From: Nitrospirota bacterium
Lineage (GTDB): Bacteria > Nitrospirota > UBA9217
Assembly (NCBI GenBank): GCA_963790205.1
Contig: CAWBNQ010000001.1
Location: 576,001 to 640,000, forward strand
Direction: 5' to 3'
DNA length: 64,000 nt
Shown piece after piece: positions 25,874 through 31,636 of the stretch (positions are counted from its first letter, which is position 1; each line of letters starts with the position of its first letter). Position numbers and translations under genes: made by a program. The notes beneath the pieces were generated by a model, which had not been told where the DNA came from, searched no databases, and was given only the letters and a program-made list of their open reading frames with translations.

Positions 25874-26269
25874 TTATGGGGTCTCAGCCTTGCGCAGGGG
25901 GGAGCTTTCGGGCTTCAGGTCCTTTAGCTTCTCCGGTTTCCTTGCTTCCTGCGCCTTCGACAGCGTCTTTTCCAGCCTGTTCTGTACCGGGAGCATCAGG
26001 CGCTTTTTCTCCAGCATCGTCTGCAGCCGCGGGCTGAGCGCCGGCCCCTTGTCCAGGATCACCCGGGGTTCCAGAGCCTGGAGCATTCCCTCCATCGCCC
26101 GTTTCTGCCACTGGGAGAGCACCATCCACGGTATCCCCATCTCCCGGCATACTTCCGCCGGCCTCCGCCGCTCCGTCCATATTGAGAGAACCGCCCGGCA
26201 TTTCTCCATCGCCCCGTGGTTTGTCATCTGCCGCTTCTTCTCGCTTTTTATCTTCTCCGTTTTTTCCAT
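25874..26269 (-). CDS. Second HTH helper, overlapping the C-terminal tail of the large transposase
   Basis: PAEVCREMGIPWMVLSQWQKRAMEGMLQALE aligns with the 128-aa ORF (W.RRA..AM..A.E); purine-rich RBS. Confidence 0.6.
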   Translation of the reverse strand: MEKTEKIKSEKKRQMTNHGAMEKCRAVLSIWTERRRPAEVCREMGIPWMVLSQWQKRAMEGMLQALEPRVILDKGPALSPRLQTMLEKKRLMLPVQNRLEKTLSKAQEARKPEKLKDLKPESSPLRKAETP

Positions 26270-27431
26270 GGCCGGCCCCTTCTTCGTTTAGATTGTAGAC
26301 TACTTCCTGCGTGGTGTCATCCTCTTCATCGTCAACCGATAGACGCAGCTTGCCCTTTTCCGCCCGCAGCACTACCGACTGCCCCTCCATGCGGCCCACC
26401 ATGTAGAACGGCAGCTTGGGCTTCCCGCGGAGCGCCATCTCGAGGAGATTCTCCTGGATGCCATGCTCGATCGTCTTCCTGAGCTCGCTCTGGATCTCAA
26501 AATACCGGTCCGCGGGACACAGGCCGCCGATCCCCTGGTGCGGTCGTTTGTGGTTGTAATACTTCACCCACTGCCGTATCCGCTCGGCGGCGTCCTCGAA
26601 GCTATCGAACTGCGCTCTGACAAGAAACTCCAGGTAGATCGTCTTCCAGAACCGTTCGATTTTGCCCAGGGTCATAGGGTGGTGTGGTTGGGATTTGATG
26701 TGGTGGATCTTGTCTTTCTTGAGCTCCAGCTCAAAACGGCTGTGCCCGCGCCAGCTCGTATACTGCCGCCCGTTATCCGTGAGCATCTCTTTCGGCGGGT
26801 TGTACTCGGAGGACGCCCGGCGGTATACCTCGATAACGTTCTGGCCCGTCTGAGTGCGGAAAAGCTCGAGCCCCGTGATGTAGCGGGAGTAATCATCGAT
26901 GTAGCCGATCAGGTACGCATAGTGGCCGCCAAGACGGAACGTGAAGATGTCCGTTTGCCACAGCTGGTTCGGCGTTGATCGTTCGAAAAAACGGGGACGG
27001 GTGATATTACGCTGACGCTTCTTAGGCGGGGACTTGATGAGGGATGAATCGTGAAGGGTCTTGCGGACTGTTTCAGGGCTGGCGGAAAGAAAAAACGCCC
27101 TCTTTAAAACCTGTGAAATGCGCTTGATGCCGAAGAGCGGGTTGGCTTCTTTTACCTCGACGATCTTCTGCCTTACCGGAGAAGGAAGACTGCGCCCCTT
27201 ACCTCTGTAATGCGTTGCGAGCCCCGCTTCGCCATGACGACGATAGTCGCGCACCCAGCGCCCGACCGTCCCACTGCTCAATCCGCATTCCTGCCGAATC
27301 ACCGAAGCAGGGACGCTTTCTTCAACAAACTTTTTGACGACTTGAAGCTTGAAATCCGGTCCATACCGCTTGCTTCGTTTCGGGAACTTCCTTTTCCTGC
27401 CTACTTGCTGTATACTCTTTTCTGGTTTCAT
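25884..27431 (-). CDS. IS481-like transposase (HTH plus rve DDE)
   Basis: PNQLWQTD, LTDNGRQY, GKIERFW, YNHKRPHQG; AGGAG RBS. Confidence 0.92.
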   Translation of the reverse strand: MKPEKSIQQVGRKRKFPKRSKRYGPDFKLQVVKKFVEESVPASVIRQECGLSSGTVGRWVRDYRRHGEAGLATHYRGKGRSLPSPVRQKIVEVKEANPLFGIKRISQVLKRAFFLSASPETVRKTLHDSSLIKSPPKKRQRNITRPRFFERSTPNQLWQTDIFTFRLGGHYAYLIGYIDDYSRYITGLELFRTQTGQNVIEVYRRASSEYNPPKEMLTDNGRQYTSWRGHSRFELELKKDKIHHIKSQPHHPMTLGKIERFWKTIYLEFLVRAQFDSFEDAAERIRQWVKYYNHKRPHQGIGGLCPADRYFEIQSELRKTIEHGIQENLLEMALRGKPKLPFYMVGRMEGQSVVLRAEKGKLRLSVDDEEDDTTQEVVYNLNEEGAGHGKNGEDKKREEAADDKPRGDGEMPGGSLNMDGAAEAGGSMPGDGDTVDGALPVAETGDGGNAPGSGTPGDPGQGAGAQPAAADDAGEKAPDAPGTEQAGKDAVEGAGSKETGEAKGPEARKLPPAQG

Positions 27432-30038: not shown

Positions 30039-30109
30039 TATCCGCAGATTACGCAGATAAAAGCGAATCCGAATTCTGGTTTTAAAATCTGCGTCCATCT
30101 GCGTAATCT
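30039..30109. repeat. REP-like palindrome targeted by the IS110 element; second arm completed at 31533-31539
   Basis: TATCCGCAGATTACGCAGAT (30039-30058) is the exact reverse complement of ATCTGCGTAATCT (30097-30109) joined to GCGGATA (31533-31539). Confidence 0.9.
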
Positions 30110-30130
30110 TCTATGTTAAAAAGCAAGTCT

Positions 30131-30378
30131 TTCTTTTGGCATAAACGCATCTCTTTTATTAAGGAGCGATTTATAGCGAACGCAATCTTCAAACCCAATC
30201 TTCTATGAGCAGACAGTCTTCGTTGATGAAGAAAACGCTGCATTGCCTTGATTAATTATGAAGGCGTGGGTTCGTAGTCTGTGGAAGCACAGACGGCATC
30301 TTTCGATCCGCTGTAGATTACGCAAGACGATACCCACGGTGAAACACGGGTTTAAGATCGGCTATAAATATCGGTTTT
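30131..30378 (-). ncRNA. Bridge/seekRNA region of the IS1111-type element (ends approximate)
   Basis: Stem-internal loop-stem with guides UGCGUAAUCU (30324-30315) and UCCACAGA (30285-30278) matching the insertion site; donor match at 30199-30207. Confidence 0.8.
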
Positions 30379-31449
30379 TTATTGAACAACCGCCGTAGTG
30401 TATTCTTGTTGGTTCTTTAAAACGTACCGGACGCGGTTTAACAGCTTCCGGGCGATCCGAACGATAGCTTTGGTCTTTGTCATGTGTTTGCACAGCTCAT
30501 TGAACGCCATCATTAGGGCAGGGTCTTTTCGCACCGCCGTCCAAGCGCTTTCGATCAAGACGAAGCGAAGCTGGGCGTTCCGCCTGCCGGTCATGCCGGT
30601 TTTAAGGTCCTTTTCCCCGCTGGAATCGGTATCGGGGATAAGGCCAACGTAGCTGCAGAGTTTGTCGAGCGTCTTGAAACGATTGATGTCATACAGCTCC
30701 GTCAAGAGCATCATCGCGGTCAAGGTACTGATTCCCGGCACGGTCTTAAGTATCCGGACATTGTTCCGATAGTCGTCCGAATTGGCCAGGGCGCGGATCG
30801 CCCGGTTCATCTCGGCAATGATATGCCGAAGATGCTTAAGCTCGTCTAAGTGTATCTTGAGTGATAGGTTGCCGCTGGCCCGCTCCATTTGTACGGACTC
30901 GATCCAATTGATGAAGCGTTTGGACCAGTAACCGTTGATGAAATCGTCCGGTATGTCGATACCGTAAAAGCTCAGGATCGACTTGATCTGGTTCTTGCAG
31001 CGAGTTTGTTTCCTTACCATGCTATTTCGAGTACGAAGGAGGCTGCGGTCCTCGACTTTTGGTCGCGTAGGGACATAGATCCCTTCGATGTCGCCGTTTC
31101 TGAGGCTCCGGGCTAGCTTGCGGCAGTCCACCCGGTCGGTCTTGCCTGCGCGCTCTTTGTCTTTTGTGGGCACATCCGCCGGATTGACCACGAGACATTG
31201 TATGCCTCGCTCCTGAAGCCGGTCATGTATCCAGAAACCGGAGTAACCGGCCTCATAGACCGACTTATAGGCTGCACCCGGAAAATTGCGTTTGAGATAG
31301 TTTACCAGCACCCCGACCTCCGGAGGTTGTGAAAAGGTCTTATGCTCGAACTGATCGGTAAAAATACTGATGCTCCAACTTTTCTTATGAATGTCCATAC
31401 CGACATAAATTTGTTGACCAGTGAAATCGAGTCTGCTAACGTTATTCAT
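30379..31449 (-). CDS. IS110 family DEDD recombinase/transposase
   Basis: GMDIHK, VYEAG, KTDRVD (DEDD), VPGIS, DSSGE (catalytic Ser region). Confidence 0.97.
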   Translation of the reverse strand: MNNVSRLDFTGQQIYVGMDIHKKSWSISIFTDQFEHKTFSQPPEVGVLVNYLKRNFPGAAYKSVYEAGYSGFWIHDRLQERGIQCLVVNPADVPTKDKERAGKTDRVDCRKLARSLRNGDIEGIYVPTRPKVEDRSLLRTRNSMVRKQTRCKNQIKSILSFYGIDIPDDFINGYWSKRFINWIESVQMERASGNLSLKIHLDELKHLRHIIAEMNRAIRALANSDDYRNNVRILKTVPGISTLTAMMLLTELYDINRFKTLDKLCSYVGLIPDTDSSGEKDLKTGMTGRRNAQLRFVLIESAWTAVRKDPALMMAFNELCKHMTKTKAIVRIARKLLNRVRYVLKNQQEYTTAVVQ

Positions 31450-31636
31450 GGCAAGTCTCCTTTTGGTGTATTTTGGTCCGGGATAGACCTAATATACCTT
31501 AAGTCAGACTTGCCTTTTTAATCATAAGGTCTGCGGATAAAAAATGACCCGAGTAGTTACGGAGGATTTAAAATTACTCACTTCAAATCCTCAATTTGGC
31601 GCTTGAGATTCGGCATTTGCCAGATCGGAGCAGACC

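Follow-up and report, generated by a model that had tools for sequence, protein, structure and literature searches.

IS110-family elements guided by bridge or seek RNAs, a system known since 2024, offer several points of comparison for the element described here. IS621 has a CT core, as reported in PMC11208158, the source of the handshake base concept, and is described as cutting the top strands just 3′ of position 9. In IS621 and IS622, handshake pairing is said to be disturbed when target and donor have the same base at position 7, and current IS622 designs filter for identical cores and an unmatched position 7. The first core base was changed in target and donor together in PMC11208160, which also reports donor guides placed in a multiloop for many IS1111 elements. 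According to the Hall group, these elements make no duplication, and one copy of the core belongs inside the left end. Copying during excision has been argued for other members (10.64898/2026.08.31.748434, 10.1101/2025.10.25.684509).

The element analysed here is a clear new example of this system. The main reading, to which we assign a probability of about 0.9, is that an IS1111-type element is guided by RNA to a 14-bp site in the arms of intergenic inverted repeats of its host, with a CT core. An earlier note on this DNA had proposed an IS1111-type bridge or seek RNA aimed at a host palindrome, a proposal that all seven copies in the source genome fit and that covariation of guides and targets in relatives supports.

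Element, Recombinase Gene and Boundaries

Positions 30110–31532 of the window (the whole 64,000-nt stretch of DNA analysed) are an intact insertion sequence of the IS110 family and IS1111 type (Table 1). Both a DEDD RuvC domain and a Tnp domain with the catalytic Ser-Gly, which characterize the IS110 family, were found in the recombinase (PF01548, E 1.9e-13; PF02371, E 2.8e-20), and residues D19/E66/D105/D108 and S277-G278 align with the catalytic motifs of IS621. Features of the IS1111 group include the motif GL-P----S(t)G at residues 269–278 and the longer non-coding region lying downstream of the gene (269 nt versus 81 nt upstream). The sub-terminal repeats measure 19/21 nt, the left one carrying two 1-nt insertions relative to the right, with a longest perfect run of 8 bp, whereas IS1111 elements typically have near-perfect repeats of 11–13 bp. 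The terminal extensions follow the IS1111 pattern, with 7 nt on the left (31526–31532) and 3 nt on the right (30110–30112), if ATG is taken as the start of the repeat and the core copy is assigned to the inside of the left end; with TATG as the start they are 6 and 2. The size of the protein, regarded in the earlier note as an asset for reprogramming, offers no advantage, as the IS621 chain in the PDB has 328 residues. The insertion is intergenic, with a RACo/ASKHA-domain gene on one side and a xanthine/uracil permease gene on the other.

Other mobile elements were also observed. The window also contains, at 25884–27431 (minus strand), the gene of a 515-aa transposase that has an integrase core (rve), helix-turn-helix domains and an extended low-complexity tail; a 131-aa ORF overlaps it. 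The source genome (G000) holds two further IS110-family elements in two copies each, 24–27% identical to the window protein (C1:496675-497655, C1:229726-230706, C2:81259-82131 and C5:25588-26460).

Table 1. Features of the element and its insertion site (window coordinates).
Feature	Position	Strand	Remarks
Intact left arm of host inverted repeat	30039..30058	+	unoccupied target on other strand
Interrupted right arm, left part	30097..30107	+	left target 30101-30107
CT core, right-end junction	30108..30109	+	target-derived copy
Right end, 269 nt	30110..30378	-	contains predicted bridge RNA
Right sub-terminal inverted repeat	30112..30130	+	contains weak -35 of predicted circle-junction promoter
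Predicted circle-junction -35	30121-30126	-	weak
Predicted bridge RNA body	30185..30358	-	closing basal helix 30348-30358 with 30185-30196
Donor-loop handshake AU	30198..30199	-	complementary to target positions 7 and 6 at 7/7 sites
Right donor guide CAUAGA + core-pairing AG	30200..30207	-	
Donor-loop inner stem	30209..30242	-	repeats UGCAGC...GUCUGC scaffold of target loop
Likely left donor guide AAGG	30246..30249	-	short, no pairing with core
Target-binding loop	30265..30338	-	outer stem, internal loop, inner GAAA stem
Target-loop handshake AC	30277..30278	-	complementary to donor positions 7 and 6
Right target guide UCCAC + core-pairing AG	30279..30285	-	
Left target guide, 7 nt + core	30315..30323	-	30324 adds tenth match
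Recombinase gene, IS110 family, 356 aa	30379..31449	-	PF01548 + PF02371, catalytic motif alignment
Left end, 81 nt	31450..31530	-	upstream of gene
Left sub-terminal inverted repeat	31506..31526	+	contains -10 TATGAT of predicted circle-junction promoter
Predicted circle-junction -10 TATGAT	31521-31526	-	
CT core, left-end junction	31531..31532	+	donor-derived copy; inside element by Hall convention
Interrupted right arm, right part	31533..31539	+	right target 31533-31537

Predicted Bridge RNA

The three guide matches claimed in the earlier note are all present in the non-coding tail, and the coordinates it gave are confirmed. The match to the left target, UGCGUAAUCU (30315–30324), holds at 10/10 positions; when the tail was shuffled 3000 times with its dinucleotides preserved, this score was reached twice, and that of the right donor match, TCTTCTATG (30199–30207), four times. 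The match to the right target, UCCACAGA (30278–30285), weak when taken alone (531 of 3000 shuffles), holds at 7/8 positions here and at 8/8 at three of the seven copies. No shuffle among the 3000 reached all three matches at once.

The tail folds better than its shuffles (z −3.9; second z −3.1), and an Rfam search gave no match at E ≤ 1. The fold outlined in the earlier note stood as regards its two stems (30327–30338 with 30265–30275, and the GAAA-capped 30289–30314). Its open loop appears in the consensus fold of 51 homologs, in which two stems enclose an open internal loop and the donor loop has a similar stem of its own (compensatory changes at 10 of the 25 pairs); in the single-sequence minimum-energy fold this part held only partly, the guide strands being partly closed into small hairpins. 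The basal helix is more stable as a cognate duplex than as a non-cognate one (−10.0 vs. −6.7 kcal/mol, 68 guide types). Since this helix closes the RNA, the donor guides would lie in a multiloop, the arrangement of PMC11208160.

Covariation of Guides and Targets in Relatives

Loci of relatives were collected from genome contigs (63), from a search of 401 genomes of the phylum (30 loci in the 16 genomes with a match) and from metagenomes (79 kept of 457 relatives). At least 50% identity was found for 127 loci, of which 104 were distinct and 102 were left after two own copies had been dropped. The RNA and right junction could be parsed in 75 of these 102, giving 71 guide types, from each of which one locus was drawn; two loci with stops (L022 and L028) were excluded from the protein alignment. 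The closest named records are assemblies of Nitrospirota, Syntrophales and Bacteroidota, and no relatives were found in viral contigs.

The covariation between guides and targets that the earlier note had proposed as a check is present on both sides of the core. The left guide matches its own left target at 6.21 of 7 positions versus 3.6 after permutation (n = 66, best of two registers, 0/3000, permutation maximum 4.18), and at 6.0 versus 3.0 with the commonest guide family collapsed (n = 42); the right guide matches at 4.12 of 5 positions versus 1.66 (n = 48), the relatives being kin, so that these permutation tests overstate significance. Matches of the right guide at positions 1–5 number 46, 42, 39, 38 and 33 of 48, falling to 13 and 12 at positions 6–7. 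Because AG was required by the search patterns both in the right target guide and at the left junction, those two are not independent counts.

Some relatives depart from this layout. In Bacteroidota relatives (35–39% identity), two tandem modules resembling the target loop, followed by one donor loop, lie downstream of the transposase; both modules were parsed in L033 and L034, with left guides that partly differ, and the second was recognised by eye in L035 and L046. Other loci (L002–L010, L019 and L071) have a right end of about 455–465 nt, with an additional stretch of about 190 bases separating the RNA from the end. Similarity stops suddenly in the right ends of L005, L066 and L095, which look as though other insertions had interrupted them, and L016 has identical flank sequence at both sides.

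Donor Guides and Handshake Bases

As in the IS110 family, the predicted donor loop can pair with the circle junction on either side, more weakly and over a short stretch on the left. On the right, the donor guide agrees with the element end at its variable dinucleotide in every one of 66 types, with four variants. The left donor guide, missed in the earlier note, is likely AAGG. Only at this one of six offsets does the agreement with the donor exceed permutations (3.08 vs. 2.82 of 4, 0/2000, n = 49). Among the 12 guide types with a variant donor, about six follow the donor change with their left donor guide (L098, L083, L108, L166, L168 and L171) and six do not (L001, L095, L096, L155, L158 and L162); in L018, outside the statistical set, the guide follows the change as judged by eye.

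Of 52 types, 51 have a target-loop handshake that corresponds to donor positions 7 and 6, and 47 of them have AC; the variants AT (twice, the left-end parse of one, L162, being doubtful), GC and GT covary, and one type disagrees. This handshake equals both target bases in 0/66 types. In the donor loop, the first handshake base follows target position 7 in 43/66 types versus 23.6 expected by permutation (0/5000), and no covariation was detected for the second (8/66 vs. 9.8). A gain of pairing upon exchange is the insertion-favouring pattern described in PMC13626964.

These observations bear on the alternative that survives best, in which guidance comes from the target hairpin alone (about 75–85 nt), recognition of the ends falls mainly to the protein via the inverted repeats, and the donor loop has an accessory role or serves excision only. 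An 82-nt seekRNA was enough for movement of ISEc11 (PMC11187229), and both the long sub-terminal repeats of the element and the short, imperfect left donor guide would suit such a model. However, the right donor guide tracks the element end in every type and the donor-loop handshake tracks target position 7, which implies selection on donor-loop pairing during insertion. We therefore consider guidance by the target hairpin alone unlikely and retain a bridge RNA with two working loops.

Length of the Core

The earlier note had read a 3-nt TCT core, and TCT does stand at both ends of all seven copies; a T at position 7 is, moreover, compatible with all four guide and handshake positions. Against an obligatory core of this length, no more than 14 of the 36 guide types with an AG core have the third base in common between target and donor, the target base at position 7 varies (A 26, G 22, T 7 and C 1 on the element strand in 56 loci with both junctions) and the donor base in the same loci is nearly fixed. 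Relatives at 77% identity (L012, L013 and L020) have AG alone in common. A T at position 7 is required by the left guide itself, and this accounts for the TCT at all seven copies. A true 3-nt core is rejected as highly improbable.

The junctions indicate instead a core of no more than 2 nt, read as CT on the plus strand of the window, that is, the core of IS621, since so few AG-core relatives share the third base. This base is target position 7, a handshake position that here coincides by chance with donor position 7. When the right junction was parsed freely in 66 types, AG was found in 51, GG in 13, and AA and GA in one each. Target and donor agree at position 7 in 24/48 types, and at the base on the other side of the core in 4/48. 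A group at 43–45% identity shows, by eye, the same artefact as an apparent 4-nt AGCA. PMC11187229 discusses a comparable case, a 4-bp duplication that had been claimed for ISEc11.

Unequal Cores in Relatives

CC at the target-derived junction (GG on the element strand) was observed in 13 of 66 guide types, and in 11 of these 13 the left guide itself ends in CC. In the genome of one relative (G194), CC at the right-end junction is combined with CT at the left-end junction in 7/7 copies inspected, and all seven uninterrupted exact repeat units, some of them partner arms beside element copies, carry CC, which settles the reading of CC as the target for that relative. The loci from this genome are L068, L083, L176, L178 and L187–L189, and most relatives with a GG core target GTCATTCC-type palindromic repeats. 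The origin of GG junctions by a 1-nt deletion or from a CT target was considered and set aside, the CC reconstruction giving clearly the longest palindrome in 7 of 11 two-flank loci; among the remaining four, L109 favours CT, L145 favours the deletion model, and L099 and L021 are ties.

In these relatives the bases up to position 9 are retained on the target side, and those of the donor are likewise retained. The crossover would accordingly fall just 3′ of position 9, the point at which IS621 is described as cutting its top strands. Identical cores thus seem unnecessary in this clade, as the no-duplication model of the Hall group implies. We suggest tentatively, at somewhat less than even odds, that the clade joins strictly 3′ of position 9, with a CT donor entering CC, TT or TC targets and a shared position 7 being tolerated. 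The window element has a shared position 7 and yet has spread to seven copies. Its own sites are all CT, and from the relatives we infer that its enzyme could also accept unequal cores. In the literature searched, mostly the main texts of open-access articles, no description of natural unequal cores was found. If this capacity is real, the enzyme would be programmable to sites barred by the design rules for IS621 and IS622, and the clade would provide natural evidence for products set by top-strand exchange alone.

Copies and Landing Sites in the Source Genome

Six full-length copies with zero differences over 1420 nt were found in the source genome, together with a seventh that we assume to be split between two contigs (C3:1073723-1074430 and C11:1-740), breaking at about element position 707 and resuming at the contig start. 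Interruption or misassembly are possible causes of this break.

Target sites were examined in a frame of 7 nt, CT and 5 nt (14 bp). Copies at unrelated sites, which the earlier note had named as evidence against guidance, were looked for, and all seven copies lie at most two mismatches from the site spelled by the guides (0, 1, 1, 1, 1, 1 and 2 mismatches). With the six whole copies removed in silico, 10 genome sites have at most one mismatch, where a second-order Markov model predicts 0.7; five of the 10 are occupied and five are free. The free sites, namely the partner arm at 30039–30058 and four others, show that the element has not saturated its targets in this genome.

At the site in the window, the empty site could be reconstructed as the earlier note had described: the flanks 30097–30109 and 31533–31539 join into a 20-mer identical to the intact arm when read in reverse complement, the two arms lying 38 nt apart. 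Host inverted repeats hold six of the seven insertion sites (opposite-arm words within 130 nt upstream), and a target stem-loop is reported to improve integration of ISPpu10 (10.64898/2026.03.19.712850), but targeting by protein or hairpin structure, with the RNA matches as relics copied from past target sites, is the least probable explanation considered here, as the copy at C1 804370 has no opposite arm within 130 nt and still shows a 7/7 match to the left guide, and the guides follow different targets in dozens of relatives with proteins 55–96% identical to that of the window. A tie between the target repeats and GxxExxY genes was dropped, the eight PF13366 matches in the genome all being far from the seven insertion sites (nearest about 90 kb).

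Proposed Mechanism and Expression

By analogy with IS621 and ISEc11, the element would leave as a circle whose junction would form a promoter transcribing both the gene and the RNA. The two-loop bridge RNA, encoded downstream of the gene, would then guide the recombinase, its target loop pairing with both target strands and its donor loop with the junction, through 6 nt plus the core on the right and about 4 nt on the left. A composite serine/DEDD site would cut the top strands just 3′ of CT, and the handshake would favour insertion, with two Watson-Crick pairs and a wobble before exchange and four pairs after it. The geometry of the element and its RNA matches that described in PMC11208158 and PMC11187229.

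In 28 of 48 cases the best-scoring junction promoter falls at one and the same position, with a 17-nt spacer, and that predicted for the window element itself is poor (8 of 12 consensus bases). A promoter and terminator scan returned one promoter-like site versus 2.1 expected and no terminator. No circle joint was present in Logan contigs of eight runs, a result that is uninformative because contigs drop rare forms. Contigs of relatives occur in three RNA runs, and one of them, of 151 nt, spans 30183–30331; it is given no weight as a sign of expression, since records of equal length suggest single reads and DNA carry-over is possible.

Significance and Comparison with Known Systems

The element adds a further readable bridge-RNA system, in a branch without a close solved structure. 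Its value lies in a natural reprogramming series, with 71 guide types on one scaffold and the target, donor and handshake positions mapped; the unequal cores of relatives are the only lead beyond the textbook. Since relatives accept unequal cores and half of them share position 7, the clade could be a reasonable source of an enzyme without the limits of IS622.

By protein identity, the nearest named elements are ISHvo10 (28%), ISSso6 (28%) and ISEc45 (26%), with IS4321, a canonical IS1111 member, at about 21%; similarity to IS621 is distant (E about 1e-6). A 22-row tree, which contains neither IS621, ISEc21, ISEc11 nor IS1111 itself, groups the window protein with ISSso6 and ISEc45 (92/93) through a weak join, away from IS4321; a plasmid search with ISBth166 provided no IS621- or ISEc21-type reference for it. 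We class the element as an IS1111-type member of a diverged branch. The ISSso6/ISEc45 branch and ISHvo10 comprise diverged elements with a downstream RNA, the window protein forming a separate clade, and AG junctions and TATG...CATA ends are, by eye, apparently shared with ISEc45. ISCARN28 stands beside ISSso6 and ISEc45 in the source data of PMC11187229, and Bacteroidetes proteins with similar motifs and no ISfinder name appear in the tree table of PMC11208160.

As in ISEc11, ISKpn4, ISPa11 and ISPst6 (PMC11187229), the window element has a downstream non-coding RNA in which the top-strand match lies 5′ of the bottom-strand match, an order of the IS1111 group, together with sub-terminal repeats, 7/3-nt extensions counted from ATG and the GL-P-x4-SG motif. 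Natural re-direction by replacement of guides is likewise described for ISEc11 and ISXne4 in the same source. Unlike the seekRNA elements reported there, its protein is just above the range of 330–350 aa, its repeats are longer and broken by two 1-nt indels, and a donor loop and handshake bases are readable. With ISPpu10 and ISPpu9 (PMC12288879) it shares insertion of an IS110-family element into repeated intergenic palindromes, although the repeat is a different one and its arms are 38 nt apart. With IS621 and IS622 (ISCro4), as described in PMC11208160, PMC11208158, PMC13626964 and 10.1101/2025.05.14.653916, it shares the 7 + CT + 5 frame, two guide loops, handshake dinucleotides that favour insertion, the DEDD plus Ser-Gly enzyme and palindromic repeat targets. 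In contrast to both, its RNA is a downstream one and, taken with respect to the gene, has the opposite sense of target reading, its donor guides are placed in the predicted multiloop with the long one on the right and about 4 nt on the left, and its target and donor share position 7.
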